33,934 nt of DNA from assembly GCA_964354145.1 (NCBI GenBank), contig CAYGXX010000002.1:1-33934 (forward strand). The letters run 5' to 3'. The position numbers and the translations under genes were made by a program. Each line of letters begins with the position of its first letter. The stretch's first letter is position 1. Below the pieces are notes generated by a model. It was not told the origin of the DNA and did no database searches. It saw nothing but the letters and a program-made list of their open reading frames with translations. Below are positions 3,941 to 32,096 of this stretch, piece after piece. The DNA is from an uncultured Candidatus Saccharibacteria bacterium. Lineage in GTDB: Bacteria; Patescibacteriota; Kazan-3B-28; UBA10110.

Positions 3941-4040
3941 CCCCCCTCCCTGTCTCATAACTCCCCTTCCCCTCTTATCTTAAGAGGGGCTACTATTCTT
4001 CTCCTCCCCTTAAAATAAGGGGAGGAAGGGAGGGGTTAGG
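3941..4040. repeat. family C palindromic elements, two hairpins
   Basis: cccctcttatcttaagagggg and ctcctccccttaaaataaggggaggaagggagggg, lying between the GT2 start and the methyltransferase stop. Confidence 0.7.
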
Positions 4041-4745: not shown

Positions 4746-6069
4746 AGATAATAAATTTATAGGTTAAGAAATTCCAGGTCCAGACAACAAAAACTGATAC
4801 AACCTTAACTATATTATAGCGCCAGCCAAACGCCAATCCTGCCCAGTAAGTTTCCGAGGCGGGCAGACCATACTTAATGATCAGGGTGGAAATGCCCAAG
4901 CCGAGCAGATTAACTGCCATGAACAAGCCGAACTGCTGCAAACTCTTTGCTCTCTTATCCTGAAAAGTCCAATATTTAGTAAAAAAATAGCTGTTAGTGA
5001 CTGCCAGCGAAAAAGAAACCACATTCGCCGGCAAGACCGCCCAATGTAATACCTGCACCAGCAAATTCAACACCCCAAAATCTATTGCGGTATTGCCTAG
5101 CCCAACGATGGCGAATTTAATAACTTGATAACTAATTTTAAAATAATGTAACCCCTCGATGCGTTTCCAGAAAGGAAACTTACTCAGGGAATAAGAATGA
5201 TGATAATGCCTCAACTCCGCTCGGCAAATATTATTCCCCGAGCTTGTCGAGGGGTTACCATTATCTTTTCGCGCTAATACCACAATACTGCTACCGAAAG
5301 GAAATTTAGCAACTCTTAACCAGCCGGCTTCAGCTTTTCCTAGCCCAATCAAAATATTATTTACCCACTGAGGTACCGGGATATACTGCTGGGCATCCTG
5401 ATGGGAATATCTAGCCAACCAGCGTTGAATGAAAAACAAAGGGAAAGTCCCACAAAAAATATAGGACGCAAAGATCGGTTGGAAACCATATTGTTTTAAT
5501 AATTTTATTAATTCGGGCAGCGAATATCTTCGATAATGTCCCAATGCCCTATCATGGGGGCCAAATAACCACTGACAGGCTGGTACTGATATAAATAATA
5601 AGCCACGGGAGCACAAAACTCTCCCCCACTCCCCTAATGCGCGCTCTTCCTCTGATAAATGTTCTAAAACATCAAAGGCAGCAACTAAATCAAACACCTG
5701 ATCTTCAAACGGCAAATCCTCTGCCCTCCCCAACACAGCAGTTCCTTTTTGGCTGGCCAATTCAACCGCCAACTCGCTGGTATCCACTCCCGCCACTTTG
5801 CCAAATTTGCCCAGCCACTGGAAATTCTCCCCCGTCCCGCACCCCACATCTAAAATACGCCTCCCGTCATGCTGAACTTGTTTCAGCATCTCTAAACCAA
5901 TATTTTTGGATGTCAGTGATGGAGATCCTGAAATAAATTCAGGATGACGGATAGCAGGCAAAAATCGGTTTAGAATGGATTCCAAAATCATCCGGCGGGC
6001 AATATGCCACCAGTAGGTTTGTTCTTCCTCTCGCAATCGCTGAATTTCCTGGTTATCCATACCTGACAA
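4717..6069 (-). CDS. fusion protein: N-terminal class I SAM methyltransferase plus C-terminal GtrA-like 4-TM domain
   Basis: N-terminal half has ILDVGCGTGENF and FDLVAAFDVLEHL. C-terminal ~130 aa has IKFAIVGLGNTAIDFGVLNLLV, YWTFQD and FLTYKFIIF, typical of GtrA-family flippase-like proteins. Three palindromic elements are translated in frame (see repeats at 5236 and 5865). Confidence 0.75.
   Translation of the reverse strand: MSGMDNQEIQRLREEEQTYWWHIARRMILESILNRFLPAIRHPEFISGSPSLTSKNIGLEMLKQVQHDGRRILDVGCGTGENFQWLGKFGKVAGVDTSELAVELASQKGTAVLGRAEDLPFEDQVFDLVAAFDVLEHLSEEERALGEWGRVLCSRGLLFISVPACQWLFGPHDRALGHYRRYSLPELIKLLKQYGFQPIFASYIFCGTFPLFFIQRWLARYSHQDAQQYIPVPQWVNNILIGLGKAEAGWLRVAKFPFGSSIVVLARKDNGNPSTSSGNNICRAELRHYHHSYSLSKFPFWKRIEGLHYFKISYQVIKFAIVGLGNTAIDFGVLNLLVQVLHWAVLPANVVSFSLAVTNSYFFTKYWTFQDKRAKSLQQFGLFMAVNLLGLGISTLIIKYGLPASETYWAGLAFGWRYNIVKVVSVFVVWTWNFLTYKFIIFGQRKPSII
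5236..5254. repeat. palindrome ccccgagcttgtcgagggg, located exactly at the methyltransferase/GtrA domain junction
   Basis: Perfect 8-bp arms. Translated as NPSTSSGNN in the linker of the 450-aa fusion ORF. A related copy ccttcgacaagctcaggg is intergenic at 10647-10664. Confidence 0.65.
5865..5948. repeat. two GTCAT..ATGAC-bounded palindromic elements (family B) inside a CDS
   Basis: cgtcatgctgaacttgtttcagcatctc (5865-5892) and gagatcctgaaataaattcaggatgac (5922-5948). Translated in frame as RHPEFISGSP...LEMLKQVQHDG, just upstream of SAM motif I. Confidence 0.75.
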
Positions 6070-9042: not shown

Positions 9043-9055
9043 AAATTACTTTACT

Positions 9056-10561
9056 TTAAGATGGTTTACGGCGCCGGGGCTTGCTCCGGCGAGGCGGGCG
9101 AGGAGAAGAGGGTCCTTTACTGGACTTAATCTTAATATTAACGGGCCCCGGCAACAGGGGCACCAGGAGTTCTTGCCCGGCAGAGAGCCGATAAGGCCAC
9201 TTTAAGTGATTGAGGGCAATAATGTCTCTCTCGCTTACTCCAACAAACTCCGCCACAGTTTTGACACTATCCCCCGCTTCGGCGATCACTGGCTCTAAGC
9301 CGCTTTCTGTCATTCCGACCAACCCTTTTGTCATTATAGGAAAGCTAACCCCTCCTCTCCTCCCCTTATATAAGGGGAGGTTGGGTGGGGTTACGGATTT
9401 TCCGCGGCGTTCTTCTTTGGTTAATTGCCCTTGCGGGATTAAGAGAATATCTCCCGCCATTAAGTCATAGGGCCACTTCAATAAATTAAATTTGGCGATC
9501 TTTTTAGGATTCACCTCATAAATACTGGCGATCATAGTCAGGGTTTCGCCCTTTTTCACCCGGTGCTCTAAAGTTTTAGTATTCAGGCGCTGGCGAATCA
9601 TAATCCATAGCCAGAACTTACGCACTAGCAACAAGAGAGCCAATCCTATCAACCACCAGAGGATAGTCATCCAAGGAATCAGCCAGAAAACATAGCGCAC
9701 ATCCTGATATTCGTCTTTGATATAATTGCCCTGGAAGTCTTCTTCACCATAATGAATCCTGAAATCAACTACAAACCGCCCGAATTTCGGTGGCTTTTTT
9801 TGCCAAGGGATTCTAGCATTGATTTGCCCCCCTCGAAGGATCATCCCAAATTGAGATTTTTTCTGCTCTCCCGCGGAGCCAAAAATCCCCCGTAATTTGA
9901 CATCCGCTTTCGGAGTTAGCTGGACATTGCCGTCATTGTGCATCGTCATCTGAAAGTACAGCACACCTTTATAAATAGTGTGAGTAACATTCTCAACCCG
10001 GAGTGCTCTTATAATATCCCCCGGCACTGTTAAATACAGCCGGGCGGCGACGCGGGTGACCACCGTCAATTGCCCGGCGCTTTTCTTTGTATCAGCAGTA
10101 GCTGTTGTGTCTTCCCAAATTACTACTCCCCCCGGGTGGCTCCCCACATCGGCATTAGCCGGAACTTTCACGGTCAAATCTATGGTTTGCTGGGTCTTGG
10201 GCGGCAAAGTAACACTGGTGCGGCTTAAAGTAGCCCAGGTCCCCACATCCTTATTAGCTTCCACATCTCTCACCAAAGTATAGCCGCCATCTTTAGTCAC
10301 TGCCCCATCCAGCACAGCAACTTTTAAGGCAACTGTGCTATTGCTATGATTCTTAATTAATACCTTATCTCTAATCTCCGTTCCGGGATCAGCCTCGTAA
10401 ACAAACCAAGACCGCAAAACAGGATACTCTTTGGTGGTAGCCGGAAACACGCTAACGCCGTACCCCTCCATAGCAAAAACCCGCACCGGCGCGAAACTGA
10501 GTATAACAAAAGCCAGGATAACCAGCCCCAGTCGGTGGATTGTTGATTGATGCCCCTCCAT
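9056..10561 (-). CDS. DUF916/DUF3324-like surface protein with single TM and C-terminal 2x LysM tail (locus A)
   Basis: Signal peptide, then WFVYEADPGTEIRDKVLIKNHSNSTVALKVAVLDGAVTKDGGYTLV (DUF916-like pattern). Then ARLYLTVPGDIIRAL..YFQMTMHNDGNVQL (DUF3324-like pattern). TM segment VFWLIPWMTILWWLIGLALLLLV followed by RK..RQR. LysM 1 is HRVKKGETLTMIASIY..GDILLIP and LysM 2 is AEAGDSVKTVAEFVGV..GQELLVP. Basic tail PRPPRRSKPRRRKPS. Confidence 0.85.
   Translation of the reverse strand: MEGHQSTIHRLGLVILAFVILSFAPVRVFAMEGYGVSVFPATTKEYPVLRSWFVYEADPGTEIRDKVLIKNHSNSTVALKVAVLDGAVTKDGGYTLVRDVEANKDVGTWATLSRTSVTLPPKTQQTIDLTVKVPANADVGSHPGGVVIWEDTTATADTKKSAGQLTVVTRVAARLYLTVPGDIIRALRVENVTHTIYKGVLYFQMTMHNDGNVQLTPKADVKLRGIFGSAGEQKKSQFGMILRGGQINARIPWQKKPPKFGRFVVDFRIHYGEEDFQGNYIKDEYQDVRYVFWLIPWMTILWWLIGLALLLLVRKFWLWIMIRQRLNTKTLEHRVKKGETLTMIASIYEVNPKKIAKFNLLKWPYDLMAGDILLIPQGQLTKEERRGKSVTPPNLPLYKGRRGGVSFPIMTKGLVGMTESGLEPVIAEAGDSVKTVAEFVGVSERDIIALNHLKWPYRLSAGQELLVPLLPGPVNIKIKSSKGPSSPRPPRRSKPRRRKPS
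9347..9393. repeat. family C palindromic element inserted in frame in a CDS
   Basis: aacccctcctctcctccccttatataaggggaggttgggtggggtta. Nearly identical to 11762-11807. Translated as TPPNLPLYKGRRGGV in the linker between the two LysM domains. Confidence 0.8.
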
Positions 10562-10646
10562 ATTTACCAGTATATCATCTGATAATTCTAATTAGTAAAA
10601 TTTTGGTGAAGAATTATAATTCTCCTCTCCTCTCATAAAAGGTAAC

Positions 10647-10664
10647 CCTTCGACAAGCTCAGGG
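10647..10664. repeat. palindrome ccttcgacaagctcaggg (intergenic copy of the 5236 element)
   Basis: Imperfect inverted repeat in the spacer between the 529-aa and 501-aa genes. Flanked by further GC-rich inverted repeats (gcctcgcccagggcgggcgg). Confidence 0.5.
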
Positions 10665-10732
10665 ATTATTGTCTGAGTGGAGCCTCGCCCAGGGCGGGCG
10701 GAGTCGAAGACATACTTTAATTTTTTAATTAG

Positions 10733-12322
10733 CTATATTGGGAGGGTTATGAGGTCGGAGCGCTGAAAAATCATCGCTATCTTGTCGCTGTAGAGCAGTT
10801 TCCACTCCTCCGGATGCGCCATAAAGTAATCTCGGGATGTCCGGTTAGAAAACACCAGTGCTAACCCCGCATCATAACGACTCAATACATCAGGGGTGGC
10901 TTCCTGATTTTTACCGACGGTTAAATAATCCGCAAAAATATCTTGAGTAGGGGTTTGCCAAACCGCCATCCGCCCGTCAATAAACACCTGCTTTTCGGGT
11001 AATTGCCAGATCAAATATCCTCCCCAGTTATACTCATTAAATAACTTGCCGGCGGGCTGCTTCTCTTTAATATATTGCGCCGCTTGATAAGGATAGCCGG
11101 CAATTCTCCCCCAGGCAGAGGGGTCATAAGTATAGGGCAAGATCTCATAATACCGCAAATAACCTATATATATAATGATGGGCACCAGCCCCACGACCAG
11201 CCAGCGGTTGCGCAGATAATAATAGATGCCCTTAGGAAAAAGCTGGTCAATCATATCTCCCAGCAAGGGCAGGGCGATCAAAGGGAAAAACGGCAAATTG
11301 CGCCAGCTAGTAAGAGATATAACGAAGAAAATTACCGCTAAACCTAACTTGACGACATCCAACCGGCGCCAAGTCCACGGAAGAAGCAGCAACAACCAAA
11401 CGGTATAAATAATCAAATTCTGGCTTTGCGGGTTGGCCCATTGGACGGGATTCCATTCTGAAATTCCAGCGTACACTGCTGGGTTAAATACGGTGCGGAT
11501 AATTTCGTCATATACTCGCCAAGTATAGGGATTGATAAAAGTAACCCCCACCATCAAGGCAATTACTATGGCTAATTCTATTAACTGGCGCACGGTCAGT
11601 ACTGGCCCGATGAGTTTCTTCTTAGAATAATACTGCCAAATGGTTTTGCCGGTTGCCAGAGCCAAAAATACTCCGGCTAGCAACAGACCAGCGACAAATC
11701 CCCCATGCAAATTGACCCAAATTAGCATCAAAGGCACTAGCCAATAGATCCGATGAAAGGCAACCCCTCCTCTCCTCCCCTTAGCAAGGGGAGGTTGGGG
11801 TGGGGTCTTGGTAGATTGATAATACCAAGCGAATAAGAGATAAAGAGTAGCAGCCAATCCCACCAAAGTAATGACTTGGGCCCGGATGCCGACAATCGGT
11901 AGAGCGACCAGCGCCGCCACGAAGGTAATCAGCACCACTACTTCCCATCGGGCTTTAGATACCGCCGCCGACAATAAATAAGCTGCGACCACCAGTCCAG
12001 CAAATAGAGCCGACAAAAACCAAAACCCCAAGTAGTGGCTGCTTAAATACAATCCCACATCCGTTAGCCATTCATGGGAAACCCAAGGGTAACCGAACAT
12101 AGTATAAGAATAAAGATCGCCTCGCGGCACCCCGAAGCGCAAAATATCGGCGCCGTTACGGAGGTGCCAACCTAAATCCGGGTCAGTCGGTGGGCGCATC
12201 AGTATAATCAAAGCTAATACTAAAACCAGACCGCTAAACCACCAGATAATTCTGTCCGGCGCACCTAAGTGGGTTAACTTATTCGTTTTCTGCGGCGGGC
12301 GCAAGGCCCTTAACCTGGACAT
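10733..12322 (-). CDS. polytopic GT-C-type membrane protein with STT3/PglB-like loop motifs (locus A)
   Basis: 529 aa with about 11-13 hydrophobic segments. First external loop DPDLGWHLRNG..HEWL. Later loop GISEWNPVQW. After the last TM, NEYNWGGYLIWQLPEKQVFIDGRM. Paralogue of 20463-22037. Confidence 0.8.
   Translation of the reverse strand: MSRLRALRPPQKTNKLTHLGAPDRIIWWFSGLVLVLALIILMRPPTDPDLGWHLRNGADILRFGVPRGDLYSYTMFGYPWVSHEWLTDVGLYLSSHYLGFWFLSALFAGLVVAAYLLSAAVSKARWEVVVLITFVAALVALPIVGIRAQVITLVGLAATLYLLFAWYYQSTKTPPQPPLAKGRRGGVAFHRIYWLVPLMLIWVNLHGGFVAGLLLAGVFLALATGKTIWQYYSKKKLIGPVLTVRQLIELAIVIALMVGVTFINPYTWRVYDEIIRTVFNPAVYAGISEWNPVQWANPQSQNLIIYTVWLLLLLPWTWRRLDVVKLGLAVIFFVISLTSWRNLPFFPLIALPLLGDMIDQLFPKGIYYYLRNRWLVVGLVPIIIYIGYLRYYEILPYTYDPSAWGRIAGYPYQAAQYIKEKQPAGKLFNEYNWGGYLIWQLPEKQVFIDGRMAVWQTPTQDIFADYLTVGKNQEATPDVLSRYDAGLALVFSNRTSRDYFMAHPEEWKLLYSDKIAMIFQRSDLITLPI
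11762..11807. repeat. family C palindromic element inserted in frame in a CDS
   Basis: aacccctcctctcctccccttagcaaggggaggttggggtggggtc. Translated as TPPQPPLAKGRRGGV in a loop that is ~16 aa shorter in the paralogue (YRFRRGESRHLWYVPL). Confidence 0.8.
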
Positions 12323-13961
12323 CTGGCAATTTACTTAATAATTCGCGGACGCTCGGGATAGTTAAATCATAATAAGCTAAATAACCCACACCTCCCCTTA
12401 AAGTTAATTTAGAGTATGGCTCAGTGGGGACCCCCCCTTTATTGCGAATGATTATCATATAGGAATCGCTCGGCAGTATCTCCAGCTCATCTAATAAAGA
12501 TAGTTGGTGTTGGTAAGCCAGCATCCATTTTTTATTATCCGGATTATATATCCCCCAAGTAGTATGAATATATACTGGATACTCGGGCAGGTAATACTCA
12601 AACTGAGGAAACCCCCAATTGATAAACGGATCGTCTATGCCAATAAGGGAATTTTGGGGATTAAAATTGCTGCGAATATCCGGAATAATGTTACGCCACA
12701 GCACATTACTCCACCCAATCGCAGAATGAGTACCTTTTTGCATATTAATGTTAGTATCCGGCTTAACATAAGTGAAGACATTGAATCCGGCTATGCCCAT
12801 AGCTATCACTACTATCAATTTAGTTATTAATAACGACTTATTGCCTTGAACGTGATAGGCAGCTAACAGCGCCTCAATCAAACCAATAACTGACACCGCG
12901 ACCAAAATAGTCAGGGCTGGCAGCACCAGAAGAAGATACCCCGGGATAGTAAATACCACTATTAGATAGAACAGCATAGCTGGTATAACCCAGAGGACCC
13001 AAAACCAAAGATTAAGCAGATTCAACTTACGCTCGCCAGCTTGCGGAGCCAGCCAAGAAGCCAAGTAAGCTATTGTAGCAATGGCGGCTAACCCGAAGTT
13101 AAGCAGTAAGTTGTTCCAAATTAACTTGCTATACAAAACTAACTTAGCCAGTCCCTTGTCAAATATTGAGAAGCTGTAGAGCCCGGATTTGCCCAAAAGT
13201 ATGCTGCTGAGGGCATGCCAGAACTTGAGCAGTCCGCCGCTTAGCCACATTGCCGGGAGTAGCCAAGCTAAAGTCCCTCCCAGAATAATCAATATACTAA
13301 TAAGTAGCCCCCGGGAGCTGCGCTGGCGCCATATCACCCATAACCACAGCGGCGTCATAAATATCACCAAGGTGGGGCGGAAACCTCCGCCAATAGCCAA
13401 GATCAAACTTGCCCAAAAAAGCGCTTTGTGATCCTTAGTATCAGTGGCGGCGCGATACAAATAGATCCCTGCCCAAGCGGCGAAGAAAGCATCGCAGGCA
13501 TAATTGAGAGCGACTTGCCCGTAAAACCAAAGCAAGGGGCCGGTAACCAATAGAATTATGCTTAACCAAGCTACCCTTTTCCCATAAACCAACTTCGCCA
13601 AATGAAATACCGCATAAAGAGCCAAGACCGAAAAGATAATACTGACTATTACTAATGCTAAATTGGCATCGTGAGTTAGAAAGTAAAAACCTTTAGTAAA
13701 CAATATATATAAAGCGTAGCCCGGTGGATGCGGCTGGTGCAAACTGATATCATAATGGTCCAGGGCCAAGGCATACAGTGCCGAATCAGTGGAATATAAA
13801 TATTCCGATTTGCCAATCCATCGACTAATGATTATCCCCAGCGCCATCACCCCTAACCAATAATTATCTGACCGCACCACGATTGAATTAAATAAGCTCT
13901 GCGGTTTAATCTTCCGCAGACGGGCACGCAACCTTTTGATTTTAGCGATGAGTTTTTTCAT
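12279..13961 (-). CDS. GT-C glycosyltransferase, PMT_2/ArnT/DUF2723 (TMEM260)-like
   Basis: 560 aa with more than 10 TM segments. The first loop has DSALYALALDHYDISLHQPHPPGYALYIL (acidic residue plus HPPGY motif). C-terminal ~150-aa soluble domain. Present only in locus A. Overlaps the next gene by 44 nt. Confidence 0.75.
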   Translation of the reverse strand: MKKLIAKIKRLRARLRKIKPQSLFNSIVVRSDNYWLGVMALGIIISRWIGKSEYLYSTDSALYALALDHYDISLHQPHPPGYALYILFTKGFYFLTHDANLALVIVSIIFSVLALYAVFHLAKLVYGKRVAWLSIILLVTGPLLWFYGQVALNYACDAFFAAWAGIYLYRAATDTKDHKALFWASLILAIGGGFRPTLVIFMTPLWLWVIWRQRSSRGLLISILIILGGTLAWLLPAMWLSGGLLKFWHALSSILLGKSGLYSFSIFDKGLAKLVLYSKLIWNNLLLNFGLAAIATIAYLASWLAPQAGERKLNLLNLWFWVLWVIPAMLFYLIVVFTIPGYLLLVLPALTILVAVSVIGLIEALLAAYHVQGNKSLLITKLIVVIAMGIAGFNVFTYVKPDTNINMQKGTHSAIGWSNVLWRNIIPDIRSNFNPQNSLIGIDDPFINWGFPQFEYYLPEYPVYIHTTWGIYNPDNKKWMLAYQHQLSLLDELEILPSDSYMIIIRNKGGVPTEPYSKLTLRGGVGYLAYYDLTIPSVRELLSKLPDVQVKGLAPAAENE

Positions 13962-14002
13962 CCTTTATTTTGCACTCCTCCTACCCCTCCCCTTACTTTT
14001 CC

Positions 14003-14150
14003 CTGTCATTCCCGCGAAGGCGGGAATCCAGAAAAGAAAATAAACAAAAACTTTTTCTTTTTTCTGTCTGGATCCTCGGGTCCCTGGCCGGGCAGGCAAG
14101 CCCGAGGATGACGAAGTAAGTAATGCTTCGTCAGTTCAGAATGACAGTAA
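14003..14150. repeat. cluster of GTCAT..ATGAC-type palindromic elements (families A and B)
   Basis: ctgtcattcccgcgaaggcgggaatccag (14003-14031), ggatcctcgggt..gcccgaggatgac, and cttcgtcagttcagaatgacag. The 14003 unit recurs at 17137-17168 and, inverted, at 17501-17529. Confidence 0.75.
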
Positions 14151-14213
14151 CACAAGGAAATAGCAAAGTGAGATTAATCATATCTAATGCTATTGTAATG
14201 AATTTACGGATAT

Positions 14214-14239
14214 TAAAAAAGCGCCCACCCTAGGACGCC
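14214..14239 (-). terminator. rho-independent terminator after the locus A small WxL-like gene
   Basis: On the minus strand: GC-rich hairpin gcgtcc-tagggt-gggcgc followed by tttttt, about 30 nt after the stop codon. Confidence 0.6.
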
Positions 14240-14269
14240 TTAGACGATTGAAATTAACCCTACTAAATA

Positions 14270-14863
14270 TTATGACAGCGTGAAGGTCAGAACAGCGGTA
14301 TAATCACCAGTGACTTCCGTTCCGTCGACGGTCAGGTTAATGAATCCATCATCGTACTGGAATACCCCGGAGGCATCATTAGAACCATTAAATACAACGA
14401 TTCCTGTATCGTTGAGAGTGCCATTGGTGCCGTTAGCTACTTGAGTAACGTCAGCATTTGCCACATTAGTGATATTACCCGCTTCTGCATAACAATTAAG
14501 TCTATCAGAATTGATGATGTTGCCAGAAGCATTAAAATTAGTGGCGGTGGCAACTACTCCCCAAGTTGTTGAGGTCCCTCGATAGTCCGTAACTGTCAAG
14601 CCGTTAATATATTCGTTACCAGTAATGTTATTAGGTGTGCCAAAAGGTTGGGCAGCAAATGCCATTGATGCGGGAGCATTCACGATCGTAAAGGCACCCG
14701 ATGTAACATTGAAAGTCAGAGCAGTGTTGTTAACAGTACCGGCATATAATCCGCCGAATGTGGTTATAACCATTAGCCCAGCGACCGCCAAAAGGATACC
14801 GCCAAACAGCTGTTGCCGAACTTGGTTTTCTGCTTTATATAAGATTGTTTGCTTGGAAGCCAT
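14270..14863 (-). CDS. small secreted WxL-like surface protein (locus A)
   Basis: 197 aa. Signal/anchor LFGGILLAVAGLMVITTFGGLYA. SGAFTIVNAPASMAFAAQPFG, then LTVTDYRGTSTTWGVVATATNF, and it ends TGDYTAVLTFTLS-stop. This pattern parallels WxL domains of Firmicutes. Confidence 0.8.
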   Translation of the reverse strand: MASKQTILYKAENQVRQQLFGGILLAVAGLMVITTFGGLYAGTVNNTALTFNVTSGAFTIVNAPASMAFAAQPFGTPNNITGNEYINGLTVTDYRGTSTTWGVVATATNFNASGNIINSDRLNCYAEAGNITNVANADVTQVANGTNGTLNDTGIVVFNGSNDASGVFQYDDGFINLTVDGTEVTGDYTAVLTFTLS

Positions 14864-15237: not shown

Positions 15238-15287
15238 GTCATTCTGGCTTGTCCCTGCCCGTCATCCTGAACTCGTTTCAGGATCTC
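15238..15287. repeat. GTCAT-type elements upstream of GIY-YIG gene 1
   Basis: gtcattctggcttgtccctgccc plus the palindrome gtcatcctgaactcgtttcaggatct (15261-15287). Confidence 0.7.
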
Positions 15288-15299
15288 TATAATAGAGGT

Positions 15300-15599
15300 A
15301 TGAGGAAAAGTTATGTCTATATTCTCACCAACAAACCAAGGGGTGTGCTTTATGTTGGTGTTACCAGTAGTCTTATCCAACGATTAGATCAACATAATTC
15401 ATCTGACATTGAATCGTTTACCAAGAAGTATTGGCTTAGACGGTTAGTATATTTGGAAGAGTTTAATTCCGTAATAGATGCCATTGCCAGAGAGAAGCAA
15501 TTGAAGAAATGGCACCGTCAATGGAAAATCAATCAGATTGAGAGTGTCAATCCTAAGTGGAAAGATTTACTAAGAGATGCTGAAACAAGTTCAGCATGA
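15300..15599 (+). CDS. GIY-YIG nuclease family protein (COG2827/URI-domain type), copy 1
   Basis: YVYILTNKPRGVLYVGVTSSLIQRLDQHN...REKQLKKWHRQWKI. The ATG at 15300 (MRKSYVY) is preferred, because the upstream part of the track ORF (from 15249) only translates a palindromic element. The last 8 codons (RDAETSSA) are another palindromic element (15574-15600). Confidence 0.85.
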   Translation: MRKSYVYILTNKPRGVLYVGVTSSLIQRLDQHNSSDIESFTKKYWLRRLVYLEEFNSVIDAIAREKQLKKWHRQWKINQIESVNPKWKDLLRDAETSSA

Positions 15600-15616
15600 C
15601 GGAGAGAGGTGTTTAG

Positions 15617-15692
15617 TGGTCGGGGTGAGAGGACTTGCACCTCCGATCTCCGCGTCCCAAACGCGGCGCCTTAGCTACTGGGCTACACCCCG
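15617..15692 (-). tRNA. tRNA-Pro (anticodon UGG), CCA encoded
   Basis: Manual cloverleaf of 76 nt. Acceptor CGGGGTG/CACCCCG with C1:G72 and A73. Anticodon stem CCGCG/CGCGG. Loop TT-TGG-GA with G37. T stem GGAGG/CCTCT. The D loop lacks GG and the T loop reads TGCAAGT (G at position 55). Confidence 0.85.
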
Positions 15693-17050: not shown

Positions 17051-17168
17051 CTGTCTCTGTCATCCCGAGCCATCCCTCCATCATCCTGAACTATTCCTCT
17101 GTCATCCTGAATTCATTAGTCATTTTCCGCCCTTACCTGTCATTCCCGCGCAGGCGGGAATCCAGACA
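17051..17168. repeat. array of GTCAT half-sites ending in a family A palindrome (left flank of GIY-YIG copy 2)
   Basis: GTCAT at 17059, 17101, 17119 and 17139 (plus ATCAT at 17079), spaced about 18-22 nt apart. Terminal hairpin ctgtcattcccgcgcaggcgggaatccagaca (17137-17168). Confidence 0.75.
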
Positions 17169-17500: not shown

Positions 17501-17620
17501 TCTGGATTCCCGCCTACGCGGGAATGACAAAAGAGATGCGGAAATAATTAGAACACAAGCATGACGAATAGAGGCACAGAAATGACATAAGAAAGGGATG
17601 ACAGTACAATAAGGCTATGA
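17501..17620. repeat. family A palindrome followed by an array of ATGAC half-sites (right flank of GIY-YIG copy 2)
   Basis: ctggattcccgcctacgcgggaatgacaa (17501-17529). ATGAC at 17523, 17560, 17581, 17597 and 17616, mirroring the left array. The last one contains the argS ATG. Confidence 0.75.
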
Positions 17621-19698: not shown

Positions 19699-19727
19699 TT
19701 GACTAAATTATGGAATGGTGGTATAAT
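19699..19727 (+). promoter_or_regulatory. sigma70-type promoter for the locus B small gene
   Basis: TTGACT, a 17-nt spacer, then TATAAT (cttgactaaattatggaatggtggtataataaa), 12 nt upstream of the GTG at 19739. Confidence 0.65.
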
Positions 19728-19738
19728 AAATTAATAAG

Positions 19739-20383
19739 GTGATTTTAAACCATATAAAACTAAAAATGAAAACTAAGATTGCTAAATTTTTGCAGGACCA
19801 AGCGGAGGTAAACCGACAGATGTTGATATTGGGAGCGGTACTTTTTTTCGCCGGGAGTATGGCAATCGGCACGATTGAGTTGGCACAGGCGGGACTGACC
19901 GGGGACACTAATATAGCCCAGAACGTCAGTGCAGGTAGTTTAGCGCTGACCGTCTCCAACGCCCAGTTAAATTTTAATGCTGGTGGTGTCGGTGATACTA
20001 CCACTGCCAATACTGGGAGTGGAGCGGGCAATGCCATAATTGTCCAGGATACCACTGGTAGCGGAACGGGTTGGGATGTCACGGGTTATTTCAATACTAA
20101 TTTTGTTAAAACTGGCGATACTAATATCCAGATGGCCATCACTGCAATGTCTTGGTATCCTGGCGCAATGACAATATCTAATAACACAGGCAACAACGCT
20201 GATGTAGATGCAGGCACTAACGGTGCTTTTGCTGGTAATGGTGATGGTAATCCTAAAACCCTGGCCAATTCTGATAATGCTCCGGGCAAATTTGATCTCT
20301 ATAACCTCAAATTTAATTACACAATTCCAATAGAGGCAGAAGCGACTGATTACACGACAAATCTAAGGTTGACTATCGCTTAA
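19739..20383 (+). CDS. small secreted WxL-like surface protein (locus B)
   Basis: 214 aa (alternative ATG at 19766). Signal peptide MLILGAVLFFAGSMAIGTIELAQA. SAGSLALTVSNAQLNFNAGG, then IIVQDTTGSGTGWDVTGYF, and it ends ATDYTTNLRLTIA-stop. Confidence 0.8.
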   Translation: MILNHIKLKMKTKIAKFLQDQAEVNRQMLILGAVLFFAGSMAIGTIELAQAGLTGDTNIAQNVSAGSLALTVSNAQLNFNAGGVGDTTTANTGSGAGNAIIVQDTTGSGTGWDVTGYFNTNFVKTGDTNIQMAITAMSWYPGAMTISNNTGNNADVDAGTNGAFAGNGDGNPKTLANSDNAPGKFDLYNLKFNYTIPIEAEATDYTTNLRLTIA

Positions 20384-20407
20384 GATAATCACAGCTCTAG
20401 TTTAATT

Positions 20408-20433
20408 CCTGTGCGATCAAGCACAGGTTTTTT
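20408..20433 (+). terminator. rho-independent terminator after the locus B small gene
   Basis: cctgtgc-gatcaa-gcacagg hairpin followed by tttttt. Confidence 0.75.
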
Positions 20434-20462
20434 GTTAGATTAATCTTTGATAGTATGGGTCT

Positions 20463-22037
20463 GTGACTATCATAAGTAAAAATAGAAAAATGAAAAATGC
20501 AGAAAAACCCGGGCGGCGGATGGGTTGGTTGAGTTCACTGACCATATTGGAAAAATTGGGGTTGTTGCTTTTAGTGGGACTAGGACTGCGACCAATTTTA
20601 GACCCCGATTTTGGTTGGCATCTGCGGGCGGGCACCGATTTAGTGGCTAATTATTTTCATCCCCCCAAATTTGACGTTTATTCTTATACTATGTCTGATT
20701 GGTCATGGGTGGACCACGAGTGGCTAACAAATGGTATTGCCGCTCTAATCCATAACGGGCTAGGGCCGCTGGTGTTAATTATATTGTTCGCTTTGCTGAT
20801 AGCAGGCACTTTTCTTTTAGCAGCATCAATCGAACGAATAGAGCTACCTTACAAAATATTAGCAGCTGTGATCGGTTTGCTAGCCGCTCTGCCTATCACT
20901 GGTGTCAGGATGCAAATGATTACCCTGCTGGGGATGGCTTGGCTCCTGTGGACTCTCTACCGCTTCCGCCGAGGTGAGTCACGACATCTTTGGTATGTAC
21001 CTTTAGTATTTGTAGCTTGGGCGAATTTACATGGTGGATTTTTGATCGGGTTGGTGATACTGGCAGTGTTCTGGATATGTGAAGCTATCAAGTATGCTAT
21101 TTCGCACTGGTGTCCCGTCTGGTACAAAAAGTTACATGTTACTGAAATAACATTAAACTGCCGACAGTTGCACCACTTGGGAGTAATTGGGTTGCTAGCA
21201 GGGGCGGCTACTCTAATTAATCCCTACAGCTGGGGACTCTACTATGATTTCTACAAATTATTTACCAACCCCTTTGCAATTAAAAATATTGCCGAGTGGC
21301 AACCAGTGTCACTAGCATTCAATCACCCCATGGCCCTTGATTTCACATTGTATTTAATTCTGTTCGCGCTGGTACTGATTCTGACCTATCGTAAGATAGA
21401 GCCAACCCGGTGGATACTTAGTGGTTTGTTTCTCTGCCTCTCATTTCTCTATTGGCGCAATTTGCCATTTTTTATGATTATGAGCGTAGGATTTTTGGCA
21501 GAGATCATGCAAGAGCATACCAGTTTAGTATTCAAAACACTTAGTCAAAATAAATGGGTATTAGTGGTGGCTACCTTGATAGTAGGAATAATTATTGGCC
21601 AGCGAATTATTGATGTAGGTAGTAAGATAACTGACCCCCTAAAAAATTTCCGGGCGGGAGGTTACCCCATCGATGCTATCCGCTGGGCTAAGAATAATCC
21701 TGACAAACTAGGGAACCGGATGTTCAATGAATATGACTGGGGCGGTTTTCTGATTTGGCAATTCCCAGAACAAAAAGTATTTGTGGATGGTAGGATGCCT
21801 TTTTGGAAAATTGGCGATCGGTTTCCTTTCTTTGATGAACAATACTCGATTGGAGCAGAACCAGGTTCCATTGAAATGCTAAAGAACAAATATAATGTGG
21901 ATTGGATGTTAATCCGCCCGCAGCGCCCCCTAGCTATTGCCCTAACTGGACAAGATGATTGGATACAAATTTATCGTGATAACTCTGCAGTAATCTACCG
22001 CAAAATTACCAATACAGATAAGAGCACACAACAATAG
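20463..22037 (+). CDS. polytopic GT-C-type membrane protein with STT3/PglB-like loop motifs (locus B)
   Basis: 524 aa. DPDFGWHLRAG..HEWL, WANLHGGF, NIAEWQPVSL, WRNLPFF and NEYDWGGFLIWQFPEQKVFVDGRM. Paralogue of 10733-12322. GTG start at 20463, or ATG at 20490. Confidence 0.8.
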   Translation: MTIISKNRKMKNAEKPGRRMGWLSSLTILEKLGLLLLVGLGLRPILDPDFGWHLRAGTDLVANYFHPPKFDVYSYTMSDWSWVDHEWLTNGIAALIHNGLGPLVLIILFALLIAGTFLLAASIERIELPYKILAAVIGLLAALPITGVRMQMITLLGMAWLLWTLYRFRRGESRHLWYVPLVFVAWANLHGGFLIGLVILAVFWICEAIKYAISHWCPVWYKKLHVTEITLNCRQLHHLGVIGLLAGAATLINPYSWGLYYDFYKLFTNPFAIKNIAEWQPVSLAFNHPMALDFTLYLILFALVLILTYRKIEPTRWILSGLFLCLSFLYWRNLPFFMIMSVGFLAEIMQEHTSLVFKTLSQNKWVLVVATLIVGIIIGQRIIDVGSKITDPLKNFRAGGYPIDAIRWAKNNPDKLGNRMFNEYDWGGFLIWQFPEQKVFVDGRMPFWKIGDRFPFFDEQYSIGAEPGSIEMLKNKYNVDWMLIRPQRPLAIALTGQDDWIQIYRDNSAVIYRKITNTDKSTQQ

Positions 22038-22071
22038 AATATAATATAAATATAAAAGATAATAAAAATCA

Positions 22072-23589
22072 TTGGCGAAGAAAATTAAATCTTTATCTTG
22101 TTTGTTGGTCTTGCTAGTAGGCGTTATGTTACCAGCGTCAGCTTTTGGGCTGGCCGCTAGTGGTATGAGTATTGCGCCAGAGGTAAATGCTAAGTTTCCC
22201 GACCGCAAGGGTTGGTTTATTTACGAAGAAGTGGAACCCGGCGCAGTCATTGAGGATGCAGCCAGGGTAATAAACTTAGGCGACAAGCCCAACACTATCA
22301 CTATCGAAGCTGTGGATGCACTTATGACTCCCGATGGCGGTTTTGCTCTAATAGGAGAACCAAAGAACAATACAGACATTGGCAACTGGATAGAACTCAC
22401 TAAAACCGAAGTAACCTTAGCCCCCAATAAAGAACAAATTATCCCCTTCAAAATTAAAGTGCCCGAAGACGCAGAGGTGGGAGACCATATTGGCGCATTA
22501 GCGGTGTACCGGAGTAACCAAGAAACAGAAGGAACCATTAAAGCTGGGGGCGCCCAAGTAAGTATCAGCACCCGAGTGGGCGCCCGGATATATCTGACCG
22601 TTAAAGGAAATATTACCCGCCAACTAACACTGCTTAAGCGAGCGATGTATGGTCGTGGTCAAAAACTGATCTTCTATTTCAAAATGGAGAACTTGGGTAA
22701 TATTCGAGCTGAAGTAGCAATGACGACCAAGATTTATAGTATTTGGGGACTCTACGACAGCAAAGAAAATATTTCCATCGGGCAAATCTTTCCTAAGCAA
22801 ACTACTACGATTGAAACAACCTGGCCAGGCAAAGGGAGACCGATTTTTGGTCCTTACTTAGCTCTCATTACTCTTGAGGATACCTTCCAAGGGCTAAACC
22901 CAGCTCAAAGCACCATGCCGCCGCCTGCTCCACCGATTCATACCTGGGCACTCTTCTTCTTTATCCCCTACACTCAAATGGCGGTTCTACTTATTCTGCT
23001 TTTCCTCATTTGGTTTATTATTCAAGCGAGACGTTGGAGGCAGATGGCCCGGTTGGCACAAATGCGAGTAGTAGCCCACAGGGTCAAGCGAGGTGATCAT
23101 TTAGTAGATATTGCTGCTCACTACGGAATAAGTTGGAAGCTATTGGCCCAGTTGAATGAAATCAAACCGCCATATGACTTCAAAGAAACCAAAACCATCT
23201 ATGTGCCTGATAGGCAAGGTCAATGCAGATATCTGCCAGTTCCTAACATATTGGCTTATTTGTTTGCCCAAATTCTTCATCCTGGTTTCTTCTTCCGTCA
23301 TCCTGAACTCGATTCAGGATCTCCAGGATCTAGATTCCGGCTCGGAGGCCGGAATGACAAGGCAGAGCCCGGAATGACAAGAGGAAGATCGGACAGAATG
23401 ACAAAAGGGGTTGTCATCAAGCCGACTAGTTACACCATCATTATTCAGCCAGGCGATACCCGGAAGGATGTGGAACAATTCACAGGATTAGCTTGGAAAA
23501 AGATAGTCAAATTTAATCGCCTGAAGCCCAAGTTTCGGCTAAAAGCCGGACTTGAATTGGAGGTACCAGAACAGGATGATGAAAAATAA
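22072..23589 (+). CDS. DUF916/DUF3324-like surface protein with single TM and C-terminal 2x LysM tail (locus B)
   Basis: 505 aa with a TTG start. Signal peptide. WFIYEEVEPGAVIEDAARVINLGDKPNTITIEAVDALMTPDGGFALI and ARIYLTVKGNITRQL. TM segment ALFFFIPYTQMAVLLILLFLIWFII followed by QARRWRQ. LysM 1 is HRVKRGDHLVDIAAHYGI and LysM 2 is IIIQPGDTRKDVEQFTGL..GLELEVP. Confidence 0.85.
   Translation: MAKKIKSLSCLLVLLVGVMLPASAFGLAASGMSIAPEVNAKFPDRKGWFIYEEVEPGAVIEDAARVINLGDKPNTITIEAVDALMTPDGGFALIGEPKNNTDIGNWIELTKTEVTLAPNKEQIIPFKIKVPEDAEVGDHIGALAVYRSNQETEGTIKAGGAQVSISTRVGARIYLTVKGNITRQLTLLKRAMYGRGQKLIFYFKMENLGNIRAEVAMTTKIYSIWGLYDSKENISIGQIFPKQTTTIETTWPGKGRPIFGPYLALITLEDTFQGLNPAQSTMPPPAPPIHTWALFFFIPYTQMAVLLILLFLIWFIIQARRWRQMARLAQMRVVAHRVKRGDHLVDIAAHYGISWKLLAQLNEIKPPYDFKETKTIYVPDRQGQCRYLPVPNILAYLFAQILHPGFFFRHPELDSGSPGSRFRLGGRNDKAEPGMTRGRSDRMTKGVVIKPTSYTIIIQPGDTRKDVEQFTGLAWKKIVKFNRLKPKFRLKAGLELEVPEQDDEK
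23297..23407. repeat. cluster of GTCAT..ATGAC-type palindromic elements inserted in frame in a CDS
   Basis: gtcatcctgaactcgattcaggatct, attccggctcggaggccggaatgac, gcccggaatgacaag and cagaatgacaaaag. Translated as RHPELDSGSPGSRFRLGGRNDKAEPGMTRGRSDRMTKG between the two LysM domains. Confidence 0.8.
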
Positions 23590-26500
23590 ATGTCATTATC
23601 TAAAAATTAAACACCCGCCCTATCTACTCAAGCCTTACAAACTAACTCGGTTTCAATGGTTAGTTTGGTTGGTTGGTATCAGTCTGATCTTCAATATCTT
23701 CGCTCTTATCCCTCTATCTTATGCCGCCACTACCGACGCCATGATCGTCTATGATGATCGGACTGTCGGCAACTCCACCCCCAAATACAAGCAGTGGAAC
23801 GGATCTTCTTGGGGCAGTGCGAGTTCCGCCACTGTGGTGACCGGAGATATCTTGTATATGGAATTAAAGTTCTCACCCGTTGCCGACAAAGCATTATTAC
23901 TAGTTCAGGGCAGCTCGGGAGTATTGTCTGCTCAAACGTGGACCGGAGGTGCCACTAACAGCTGGGGCTCGGTCACTACAATTGGAACATTAGGGCAAGG
24001 CACTCTGGAAGACGCCGGGACTAGTGATGCTGACTACTACCGGTCTTGGGATTTTGAATTTGAACAAACCTCCGGAGATGCCGTAGTGGTCTACAATGAC
24101 GGCACCGCCGATCCGGACTATAAGGTCTGGAGCAACTCTTCCGGTAACTGGGACGGTTCGGGTACTAACATTAACGTCCTGACCGCTGGTTCCCCTAACT
24201 GGATTGAGTTGGCTTCTCACCCAGGCAGTGATCGGCTCGCCATGATCTTGGTGGATAGTGCCGTGGACATCTACGGGATGAGGTGGGATGGTAGCGCCTG
24301 GGATGACATGAACTCTGGCGGAGACGAAGCGGTCTGGGATGCTAGTGCCGCCATCGCTACTCGCAAGTGCATGGATGTGGCCTTTGAGACCACAACCGGT
24401 GACATTATTTTTATTTGGGGAGACACCACTGCCACCGACCAGTATTACCGCGAATATTCCGAAAGCGGAGTAACCTTAGGAGCCGCTACCTTGTTGGATA
24501 TCTCCACTGCCAATACTACTAACTGGGTCCGTCTGGCTGCCGATCCAACCGCCTCCTCTGACCAGATCCTGTTAGGCGTGCAGGACGGATCACTCGACTT
24601 GAACACCCGAGAGTGGAGCGGGACGGGATGGGATGCCGCGCACTCTGAACATGACAGCGCAGTGGAAAACATCAGAAGCATGAACTTCGACATCATCTGG
24701 GAGACTCATTCCAGTAATCCCGGTGAGGCCTGGCTAGTCTACGGGGATGATGCCGGGACATCTTCTCGCCATTGGACCGGTTCGGCCTGGGACAGTATCG
24801 TCGCTCTGACCAGTGATGATGATGCTGCGGTAGTTCGGTTGGCAGCCAACCCTTATGATGGTGCTCTGTTAGCAGCCGTCTATGAAGATAATTCTTCTAA
24901 TTCCGATAATTTAGAAGAATCTCACATCACCGGCGGAGGCAGTGCTTGGTCTGCTCAGGGCGAGATTTGGACTGGACCGGTATATAGCAACACCGCCACG
25001 GAGTTTGGAGGGTCGGGCTTTCGCACAGCCATCGCCGCGGAGATGTATGGTTCTTCTACCGACGCCATGATCGTCTATGATGATCGGACTGTCGGCAACT
25101 CCACCCCCAAATACAAGCAGTGGAACGGATCTTCTTGGGGCAGTGCGAGTTCCGCCACTGTGGTGACCGGAGATATCTTGTATATGGAATTAAAGTTCTC
25201 ACCCGTTGCCGACAAAGCATTATTACTAGTTCAGGGCAGCTCGGGAGTATTGTCTGCTCAAACGTGGACCGGAGGTGCCACTAACAGCTGGGGCTCGGTC
25301 ACTACAATTGGAACATTAGGGCAAGGCACTCTGGAAGACGCCGGGACTAGTGATGCTGACTACTACCGGTCTTGGGATTTTGAATTTGAACAAACCTCCG
25401 GAGATGCCGTAGTGGTCTACAATGACGGCACCGCCGATCCGGACTATAAGGTCTGGAGCAACTCTTCCGGTAACTGGGACGGTTCGGGTACTAACATTAA
25501 CGTCCTGACCGCTGGTTCCCCTAACTGGATTGAGTTGGCTTCTCACCCAGGCAGTGATCGGCTCGCCATGATCTTGGTGGATAGTGCCGTGGACATCTAC
25601 GGGATGAGGTGGGATGGTAGCGCCTGGGATGACATGAACTCTGGCGGAGACGAAGCGGTCTGGGATGCTAGTGCCGCCATCGCTACTCGCAAGTGCATGG
25701 ATGTGGCCTTTGAGACCACAACCGGTGACATTATTTTTATTTGGTCTGATACTACCTCAACCGACCAGTATTACCGCGAGTACTCCCAAAGTGGCGTAAC
25801 CTTAGGGGCTGCTACCTTATTGGATGTTTCAGTGGCAGGAGGCATAGGCCACTGGTTAAGGTTGGCCGCCGATCCCACCGCCTCCTCCGATCAAATCCTA
25901 TTTGGGATGCAAGACGCCGGACTCGACTTGAACACCCGAGAGTGGAGCGGAACGGGATGGGATTCCGAGCACGCTGAACATGACGCAGGACTTGAGGTCT
26001 TAAAATGTATGAACTTCGACATCATCTGGGAAACTTATTCTGGCAACCCCAACGAGGCCTGGCTAGTCTATGGGGATGATGCCGGGACATCCTCCCGCCA
26101 TTGGACTGGTTCGGCCTGGGACGGTATCGTCGCTCTGACCAGTGATGATGACACTAGCCTAGTGCGATTGGCGGCCCTCCCCGACAGTGGGGATTTACTC
26201 GCTGCCTCGTATGAAAGCAATGCTGCCGCTACCGATAATTTAGAAGAATCTCACATCACTGGCGGAGGCAGTGCTTGGTCTGCTCAGGGCGAGATTTGGA
26301 CTGGGCCGGTTGAAAGTAGTACTGCCACGGAGATGGCCGGACCGGGATTTAAAGTAGCGATAGCCGGGGAGATAGCAGAAGGCGCAACATTAGGGATCAC
26401 CGCTCCGGCTGATGTTACTCTAACTACGGGCAATCCAGGCGACATTAAAGAAACTACTTGGAGCGCAGGTGAGAAGGTAGTGGTAACTGACGGCGGGTCA

Positions 26501-26818
26501 GGTTGGAGCTTGACGGTAATTATGCAGACCACTTTGACCGCGGAAGGGTCATATACCATCCCTGATGCGAATATAAAAATTCGCAAAGATGGCACAGTAG
26601 GCGGAGGGGGCGATGCTTATACGATCTGGTCAGGAACTTATACTAACATTACCGAGACCAACGCCACCGAATCATTAGATACATCGCGCACAGTAGGAGT
26701 ACGAAGCAGCGGTACGGGCGGTGATACATCGGAAGTGCGCCCAACCATTCAAGTGGTAATTCCGGTTGGGCAACATCCAGCCGATTACACTGGAGCTATG
26801 AGATTCACCGTGGCCTAA
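23576..26818 (+). CDS. ~1080-aa secreted surface protein: two tandem 442-aa W-x-G-x-x-W repeat modules plus C-terminal WxL-like domain (locus B giant)
   Basis: The ATG at 23576 (MMKNK) is preferred to the TTG at 23552 and overlaps the upstream stop by 14 nt. Signal/anchor WLVWLVGISLIFNIFALIPLSYA. The tail has LGITAPADVTL..VVVTDGGSGWSLTVIM..PADYTGAMRFTVA-stop. Confidence 0.85.
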   Translation: MMKNKCHYLKIKHPPYLLKPYKLTRFQWLVWLVGISLIFNIFALIPLSYAATTDAMIVYDDRTVGNSTPKYKQWNGSSWGSASSATVVTGDILYMELKFSPVADKALLLVQGSSGVLSAQTWTGGATNSWGSVTTIGTLGQGTLEDAGTSDADYYRSWDFEFEQTSGDAVVVYNDGTADPDYKVWSNSSGNWDGSGTNINVLTAGSPNWIELASHPGSDRLAMILVDSAVDIYGMRWDGSAWDDMNSGGDEAVWDASAAIATRKCMDVAFETTTGDIIFIWGDTTATDQYYREYSESGVTLGAATLLDISTANTTNWVRLAADPTASSDQILLGVQDGSLDLNTREWSGTGWDAAHSEHDSAVENIRSMNFDIIWETHSSNPGEAWLVYGDDAGTSSRHWTGSAWDSIVALTSDDDAAVVRLAANPYDGALLAAVYEDNSSNSDNLEESHITGGGSAWSAQGEIWTGPVYSNTATEFGGSGFRTAIAAEMYGSSTDAMIVYDDRTVGNSTPKYKQWNGSSWGSASSATVVTGDILYMELKFSPVADKALLLVQGSSGVLSAQTWTGGATNSWGSVTTIGTLGQGTLEDAGTSDADYYRSWDFEFEQTSGDAVVVYNDGTADPDYKVWSNSSGNWDGSGTNINVLTAGSPNWIELASHPGSDRLAMILVDSAVDIYGMRWDGSAWDDMNSGGDEAVWDASAAIATRKCMDVAFETTTGDIIFIWSDTTSTDQYYREYSQSGVTLGAATLLDVSVAGGIGHWLRLAADPTASSDQILFGMQDAGLDLNTREWSGTGWDSEHAEHDAGLEVLKCMNFDIIWETYSGNPNEAWLVYGDDAGTSSRHWTGSAWDGIVALTSDDDTSLVRLAALPDSGDLLAASYESNAAATDNLEESHITGGGSAWSAQGEIWTGPVESSTATEMAGPGFKVAIAGEIAEGATLGITAPADVTLTTGNPGDIKETTWSAGEKVVVTDGGSGWSLTVIMQTTLTAEGSYTIPDANIKIRKDGTVGGGGDAYTIWSGTYTNITETNATESLDTSRTVGVRSSGTGGDTSEVRPTIQVVIPVGQHPADYTGAMRFTVA
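23730..26382 (+). repeat. intragenic tandem duplication, 2 x 1326 nt
   Basis: 23730-24418 is identical by eye to 25056-25744 (689 nt). The remainder of each unit is clearly diverged, apart from a near-identical ~75-nt patch (24905-24980 versus 26231-26306). The identical antisense ORFs at 23990-24220 and 25316-25546 in the track confirm the 1326-nt period. Confidence 0.95.
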
Positions 26819-31966: not shown

Positions 31967-32088
31967 CTGTCCTGGCACCGACCTACTTTTGCGACCCCGA
32001 AGGGTAACTATCATCGGCGCTGAGATGCTTAACGGCCGTGTTCGGGATGGGAACGGGTGTTGCCACCTCGCTTCGGGCACCAGGACAG
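31967..32088 (-). rRNA. rrf: 5S ribosomal RNA
   Basis: The reverse complement contains cccgttcccatcccgaacacggccgttaag and has terminal helix pairing (ctgtcctggtgcc...ggtgccaggacag). The ends are approximate to within a few nt. Confidence 0.9.
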
Positions 32089-32096
32089 TAAACTCG

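Follow-up and report, generated by a model that had tools for sequence, protein, structure and literature searches.

Identical-repeat adhesins of Gram-positive bacteria, such as alpha C/Rib, Esp and Aap/SasG, carry many short-to-medium repeats in variable copy number. Duplicated sequences in bacteria, among them the rRNA operons and tufA/tufB of Salmonella, are known to evolve in concert by gene conversion. Bacterial gene conversion and concerted evolution have reportedly been reviewed by Santoyo and Romero in FEMS Microbiol Rev in 2005. The repeats of spidroins are also homogenised within the gene (PMC3933166, PMC9779670). The subject here is a surface-protein gene (23576-26818, + strand) in a stretch of 33,934 nucleotides (nt) of contig CAYGXX010000002.1, from an uncultured Candidatus Saccharibacteria bacterium; the whole stretch is called the window. 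The gene encodes two tandem units that share a block of 689 identical nt placed beside clearly diverged sequence. The most probable explanation, at roughly 73%, is recurrent intragenic gene conversion between the two units of an ancient duplication, in which ~690 nt were recently overwritten.

Counted from the ATG, the gene product has 1080 amino acids (aa), the same length as the public protein P0001, which is 100% identical to it and known from this contig only. The list of open reading frames (ORFs) starts it at the TTG at 23552. An earlier inspection of the DNA letters alone, here the sequence-only reading, had described a giant gene with two 442-aa units. One gene does hold both units, in a single open frame (23552/23576-26818), although it is large rather than giant, and the length is correct for unit 1 and one residue short for unit 2 (443 aa). 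The identical block, termed block A, covers 23730-24418 in unit 1 and 25056-25744 in unit 2, both on the + strand and offset by 1326 nt. When the copies were located by a repeat search and compared letter by letter, 689/689 bases agreed, with no scattered mismatches, exactly as had been claimed. To the left of 23730/25056 the identity extends by zero nt and no similarity is seen. The neighbours on this side differ, the signal/transmembrane region preceding unit 1 and the tail of unit 1 preceding unit 2. The N-terminal segment (23576-23731, + strand) comprises a basic stretch and a hydrophobic helix ending in PLSYAAT; it has no homology to the unit tail and therefore marks the left limit of the repeat. 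On the right the identity stops as abruptly as first described (TTTGG/GG versus TTTGG/TC), the shared TTTATTTGG being followed by GGAGAC in copy 1 and by TCTGAT in copy 2.

The second halves of the units are termed B1 (24419-25055, + strand) and B2 (25745-26386, + strand). In a codon alignment they show 156 differences in 642 columns, with a net 3-nt indel near 24510 from which the offset becomes 1329. The differences divide into 73.8 synonymous and 79.2 non-synonymous (synonymous divergence dS 0.80, non-synonymous divergence dN 0.18, dN/dS ratio omega 0.23), and B2 retains 76% aa identity to B1. The sequence-only reading had recognised this divergence and its many non-synonymous changes; the length it gave, ~480 nt, has to be corrected to ~640 nt. 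The first 60 codons beyond the boundary of block A already have a dS of 1.7-2.0, so the transition from identity to divergence is abrupt. Block A itself has 0 differences at 155 synonymous sites, with a 95% upper bound on dS of ~0.02, and its identity appears to be at least 40 times younger than the rest of the units. When the 156 differences were scattered randomly over the 1329 columns in 20,000 trials, the longest identical run had a mean of 44 nt and a maximum of 111 nt, against 687 nt in the actual codon alignment (P < 1/20,000). A chance origin of the identity is excluded.

Selection at the level of the sequence, through an embedded RNA, an antisense gene or an extreme codon constraint, could be imagined to keep block A identical without recombination. 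The total lack of synonymous change beside a dS of 0.8 is beyond selection on the protein or on codon usage, an Rfam search of block A gave no match, and the homologous region has freely diverged between the units of most relatives. The probability of this explanation is as good as negligible. Mutagenesis of the template repeat/variable repeat (TR/VR) kind by a diversity-generating retroelement (DGR) was also rejected. The differing bases in B1 are even (A 32, C 40, G 34, T 38), transitions and transversions stand at 71:73 with no adenine bias, and no reverse transcriptase is found among the window genes.

The diverged halves are themselves mosaic, with identical runs of 28-44 nt and one longer patch. 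The patch, placed by the sequence-only reading near the unit end at about 75 nt, spans 79 nt with 2 mismatches (24903-24981 versus 26232-26310, both + strand) and encodes ...DNLEESHITGGGSAWSAQGEIWTGPV in blade 8. When only the diverged part is permuted, none of 20,000 trials produced 79 nt with 2 mismatches (P < 5e-5), and the 44-nt identical run has P = 0.00055. The patch is probably a separate conversion tract, older or shorter than block A.

The differences between B1 and B2 are commoner in loops (31/102 loop positions versus 10/85 strand positions; Fisher P = 0.002). Positive selection in B1 and B2 found no support: the overall omega is 0.23, and no window of 30 codons exceeds 0.52. The intact frame, the low omega and the loop-enriched differences indicate that both units are functional and not decaying; both would be under purifying selection with differentiation at the level of the loops. 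The G+C content at third codon positions (GC3) is 55-59% in both units (23732-26386), compared with 45% in the C-terminal tail of the same gene and 38-48% in most neighbouring genes. GC-biased gene conversion is not supported as the reason, since the orthologous units described below have a GC3 of ~40%, like their neighbours.

A search of 5.8 billion proteins returned 53 relatives. Two units are present in 31 of them, essentially all from metagenome-assembled genomes (MAGs) of Patescibacteria, also called the candidate phyla radiation (CPR): Peribacteria, Saccharibacteria, Gracilibacteria, WWE3 and Paceibacterota. Single-unit relatives are found in other phyla. None of the 53 has three units, all 31 multi-unit proteins having exactly two, and the longer homologues differ in C-terminal extensions only. 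The junction between the units is homologous in 31/31 two-unit proteins (...W.GPV.RN.G..R.A.A.Q.Y.SS, then [TN][DE]AM.VY), and in the largest clade the first units and the second units form separate clades, with an intra-protein identity of 50-70%. Consequently, the two units descend from one ancient duplication that long predates the identity block. The more distant homologues sit in other gene contexts. Eight homologous loci (L006-L009, L012, L015, L017 and L018, from MAGs that carry the label Peribacteria or Gracilibacteria) can be aligned from end to end but, when read with table 11, have 3-12 in-frame stops per unit, a pattern consistent with an alternative genetic code such as code 25, in which UGA encodes Gly.

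In two proteins of the family the units resemble each other more than they resemble their orthologues. The units are 89% identical within P0001, the window protein, and 95% identical within its orthologue P0002, compared with 58% between the two proteins, and in a neighbour-joining tree the units of each cluster by protein. B1 and B2 are also each other's nearest relatives (76% aa identity versus ~50% to any other protein).

P0002 is encoded on the complete 560-kb chromosome OY968788.1 (MAG MFD04716.bin.1.3; loci L001 and L002), where the order of the genes around it is kept. This chromosome appears to be long-read assembled, judging by an isolate name that follows the pattern of the Microflora Danica catalogue, which is Nanopore-based (PMC12313526). 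Its units form a mosaic of another shape. A segment of 480 nt (L001 10123-10602) has 2 differences between the units, the following 238 nt (10603-10840) have 53 differences (22% divergence), and the last ~590 nt (10841-11428) have 1 difference. A diverged island with identity on both sides is the classic signature of conversion tracts. A third, unrelated lineage, a Peribacteria MAG (L004), has 479 identical nt in the second half of the units (6892-7370 = 8155-8633), directly after 720 nt at ~62% identity. The longest identical run in the orthologue is 546 nt, and that in L004 is 479 nt. Several further loci contain shorter significant runs (26-62 nt), and others are uniformly 56-66% identical. 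The window block thus seems to be the most recent case of something that happens repeatedly in the propeller gene family, and the proposal of the sequence-only reading, that an older duplication has lately been homogenised in part by gene conversion or unequal recombination, is borne out by the family-wide junction, by the dS of 0 in block A against 0.8 beyond it and by these mosaics in relatives.

Unequal crossing-over would explain the same block in two steps. A crossover in blade 5 would yield A1B1-A2B1-A2B2, and a second one near the unit start would drop one period and leave A2B1-A2B2. Such a history suits an identity that begins precisely at the repeat boundary, the preserved period and reading frame, and the identical blocks of L001 and L004, which also reach, or nearly reach, the unit end. 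On the other hand, two events are needed, the second of them no more than a few nt into units whose divergence was presumably ~20%, and single crossovers cannot make the island of L001 with identity on both flanks. Neither a homologue with one chimeric unit nor one with three units is seen among the CPR members. This history is unlikely.

The divergence could instead be the newcomer, if whole units had been homogenised or re-duplicated and a diverged B segment was then imported from another strain. The sharp boundaries are accounted for equally well by such an import, and one example could be the L001 island, where near-perfect flanks enclose 238 nt with 53 differences. However, an imported segment agrees poorly with B1 and B2 being each other's closest relatives (76% versus ~50% aa identity), no donor lineage turned up in the collections searched, and the internal mosaic of the B region, with its short runs and the 79-nt patch, fits repeated internal exchange. 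An import is therefore quite improbable.

The assembly also has to be considered. The A copies may be merely similar, the copy number may be wrong through a collapsed or duplicated graph edge, or two one-unit strain variants may have been joined. Perfect blocks occur in the window and in L004, whose NODE_ name suggests a SPAdes-style short-read assembly; the seemingly long-read orthologue has isolated differences within its blocks, and 689 nt exceeds the typical short-read length. The strain chimera, which the sequence-only reading had offered as an alternative, fails. B1 ends in the linker typical of the family (AEMYGSS followed by TDAM, compared with AEIYSSS followed by TDAM in P0002) and B2 in the transition from unit to C-terminal domain, as in every homologue, and the homologous junction of all two-unit relatives shows that the tandem arrangement is not an assembly chimera. 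The assembly collapse proposed at the same time survives only weakly, as near-identical copies printed as identical or as a miscounted loop. Bubble-popping hides low-level differences only, leaving the contrast with the adjoining ~24% divergence real, and the same phenomenon is present in an independent complete-chromosome assembly. An artefact as the source of the block is highly improbable.

Intragenic gene conversion would proceed as follows. One ancient duplication would have given two tandem eight-bladed propeller units, which in the window lineage would recombine with each other repeatedly. An earlier round would have homogenised the second halves, which have since diverged to a dS of ~0.8. 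The latest event, a non-reciprocal homologous recombination presumably of the RecA type, would have copied ~690 nt of the start of one unit onto the other, ending inside blade 5 and erasing all differences in block A. The 79-nt micro-tract in blade 8 would record a further exchange. Among residues diagnostic for unit 1 or unit 2, block A has 6 like unit 1 versus 3 like unit 2, and both B halves are more like unit 2; either unit may have been the donor.

Several points weigh against intragenic gene conversion. A graph assembler that walks a loop A-B1-A-B2 prints the A edge twice, so that a few real differences could vanish and extra turns could be missed. The blocks that would count as identical contain 1-2 isolated differences in the seemingly long-read orthologue. 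The identity starts exactly at the repeat edge, as two-step unequal crossing-over could also bring about. Finally, relatives close enough for a comparison of populations are not found: none above 58% identity is present among the 5.8 billion proteins, an exact-protein look-up of contigs gave nothing, and the best match in a metagenome scan for close relatives has only 38%.

In shared unit coordinates, tract ends lie at aa 229/230 in the window, aa 244 in L001 and aa 257 in L004, in or just after blade 5, and a common W-x-G-P-V ahead of the closing strand is where two tracts end. With few events this clustering is only suggestive. It is rather doubtful that the exchange is not random and favours one recombination point, or a seam that the structure tolerates, by which half-propellers would be shuffled, deleted or expanded and a host- or glycan-binding protein varied cheaply.

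In RecA-dependent recombination, perfect direct repeats of 689 bp placed 1.3 kb apart are expected to yield in-frame one-unit and three-unit variants. The strict two-unit architecture of the family suggests that such variants do not persist. Variation in repeat number, which the sequence-only reading had anticipated, is not favoured by a family in which every multi-unit homologue has exactly two units. The repeats of the window would be a strong substrate for in-frame deletion, leaving one chimeric A-B2 unit, or for triplication, and alleles with one or three units, still in frame, may exist in real populations. Short-read MAG assemblies can miscount copies at a perfect repeat of 689 bp.

The protein is laid out as a signal/transmembrane segment, propeller unit 1, propeller unit 2 and a tail of ~143 aa. 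In the AlphaFold model of one unit (mean local confidence pLDDT 86.5, global confidence pTM 0.90) the fold is all-beta, with eight groups of four strands, and the C-terminal strand closes onto the N-terminal strand. Eight Trp-containing sequence repeats per unit match the eight groups. The prediction shows an eight-bladed beta-propeller, in which block A (unit aa 1-229) supplies blades 1 to 4 together with strands 1 and 2 of blade 5, and B1 takes in what is left of blade 5, blades 6-8, the closing strand and the linker ...AIAAEMYGSS between the units. In a Foldseek search with the unit model, the top 11 matches are all PLL/PHL lectins (TM-score 0.66-0.70 normalised on the target); the best are the Photorhabdus PLL/PHL and Burkholderia BP39L propeller lectins, at E ~1e-10 and ~10% identity. 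The full-length model matches tandem-propeller proteins. The propeller protein has no match in Pfam, even at E <= 10, in NCBIfam or among PDB sequences, and a precomputed PF26696 tag, a faint PTL_trimer match, was not used.

The N-terminal segment looks like a signal peptide or a membrane anchor, and a helix at residues 25-43 is present in its AlphaFold model. The C-terminal tail (26387-26815, + strand; ~143 aa) has pLDDT below 50, contains an internal GWSLTV and ends in ...PADYTGAMRFTVA. It resembles a WxL-type wall-binding domain at motif level only, without a profile match. According to the models, the product is a predicted secreted or wall-associated surface protein with two tandem eight-bladed lectin-like propellers, which may bind a sugar or another ligand.

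The propeller gene is the last of four co-oriented genes (locus B, 19739-26818, + strand) that form a putative operon. It is preceded, on the same strand, by the genes for a small WxL-like protein (19739-20383), a polytopic membrane protein (20463-22037) and a wall-binding protein (22072-23589) with WxLIP_PGBD (Pfam PF06030, 34.1 bits, cut-off 27.3) and LysM (48.1 bits). A promoter/terminator scan places a strong promoter-like site at 19699-19727. A terminator-like hairpin with a T-run (20408-20427) separates the small WxL-like gene, which ends just 5' of it, from the other genes of the locus; the small protein may thereby be expressed strongly while some transcription reads through. Sites of this kind are consensus matches only: 6 were counted in the region, and shuffles gave 7.1 on average. 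The CCGGAATGACA repeats (23296-23410), related to the second palindrome described below, are placed in frame in the LysM-LysM linker of the ORF 22072-23589 and encode ...GSRFRLGGRNDKAEPGMTRGRSDRMTKG.

Locus A (6127-14863, - strand) is organised like locus B in the opposite orientation, and the two flank the GIY-YIG, tRNA-Pro, ProRS and ArgRS genes. Common to both are a small WxL-like protein, one or more membrane or PMT_2-type proteins and a WxLIP_PGBD+LysM protein. Each also has a protein of ~1000 aa with a similar C-terminal motif, beyond which the large proteins 6127-9042 and 23552-26818 show no significant similarity. The small protein of locus A scores 22.4 bits against the WxL profile, below the cut-off of 25. 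The syntenic region of L001 lacks locus A, and there methyltransferase/GtrA genes directly precede ProRS.

The window contains ThrRS, MiaA, ProRS, ArgRS, PGA_cap and ComM-like genes. Its end (31970-33762, - strand) holds a 5S rRNA (31970-32084), the 3' end of a 23S rRNA (32510-32767), a group I intron (32862-33115) and a LAGLIDADG ORF (33277-33762); such an ORF also stands at the corresponding end of L001. A 23S gene interrupted by an intron is typical of CPR bacteria. The gene set, together with the 23S rRNA 3' end, its intron and the LAGLIDADG ORF, indicates a Patescibacteria/CPR genome.

Other repeats are scattered over the window. A palindromic element of ~45 nt (AACCCCTCCTCTCCTCCCCTTA..TAAGGGGAGG..GGGGT) occurs four times (2135-2156, 4016-4037, 9347-9368 and 11762-11783), where none is expected by chance. 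Two copies are in frame within intact ORFs and add TPP[NQ][LP]PL[YA]KGRRGGV[SA]F, one between two LysM domains of 9056-10561 and one in a loop of the membrane protein 10733-12322; they recall the Rickettsia palindromic elements. A second palindrome, CATTCCCGCGMAGGCGGGAATC, similar to repetitive extragenic palindromes (REP) or miniature inverted-repeat transposable elements (MITE), is intergenic at 14007-14028, 17141-17162 and 17505-17526. The GIY-YIG nuclease ORF (15249-15599) lies directly upstream of tRNA-Pro(UGG) (15617-15692), and the 64 nt at its 3' end (15561-15624) show inverted similarity (77%) to 5842-5905. A tandem repeat of 21 nt x 2.5 follows ProRS (17060-17111).

CPR organisms are uncultured and have very small genomes, hence direct evidence on their recombination is scarce. 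The locus points, with comparative support, to ongoing homologous recombination inside a surface-protein gene of this group. In addition, the analysis defines an uncharacterised, widespread family of tandem eight-bladed lectin-like propellers, a plausible cell-surface binding protein of episymbionts.

Among described proteins, the units compare with the PLL/PHL and BP39L/CV39L lectins (PDB 5mxe, 5c9o, 6t96, 6gxr; TM-score 0.68-0.70), which are likewise secreted bacterial proteins with Trp-rich repeated blades. They differ from them in having eight blades instead of seven, in the ~10% identity without a profile match and in the tandem propellers followed by a tail. The surroundings recall the WxL loci of Firmicutes (PF13731, PF06030). 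The adjacent gene has WxLIP_PGBD above the Pfam threshold together with LysM, in the same arrangement in L001, and the small and large proteins end in Y-x-G/T-x-h-x-h-T-h with an upstream G-W-x-h-T. Unlike the WxL proteins, the propeller protein has no PF13731 match even at E <= 10; its last 11-19 residues resemble the small proteins of the locus.

With the identical-repeat adhesins and the spidroins the gene shares long tandem repeats, identical at the DNA level and maintained by recombination in a gene for a surface or structural protein, which are potential substrates for deletion and expansion. In contrast to them, every multi-unit homologue has exactly two units of 1.3 kb, the unit is only partly homogenised, and arrays of more than two near-identical repeats with varying number were not found in the 31 multi-unit homologues.

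A close parallel is the concerted evolution of tufA/tufB and the rRNA operons. There, as here, copies in one genome are more alike than orthologues, the tracts of identity have sharp ends and the reading frames are kept. Three marks of concerted evolution are found together at this locus: paralogues more similar than orthologues, a duplication older than the lineage split, and sharp tracts too long for chance. The case is clear but ordinary: it adds one more well-supported instance to an evolutionary process already known, from a family of CPR surface proteins that is so far uncharacterised. It departs from the tuf genes and the rRNA operons in that the partners are the two halves of one gene for a Patescibacteria surface protein, placed 1.3 kb apart, and in that the exchange spans half a propeller domain and recurs in only some lineages of the family.

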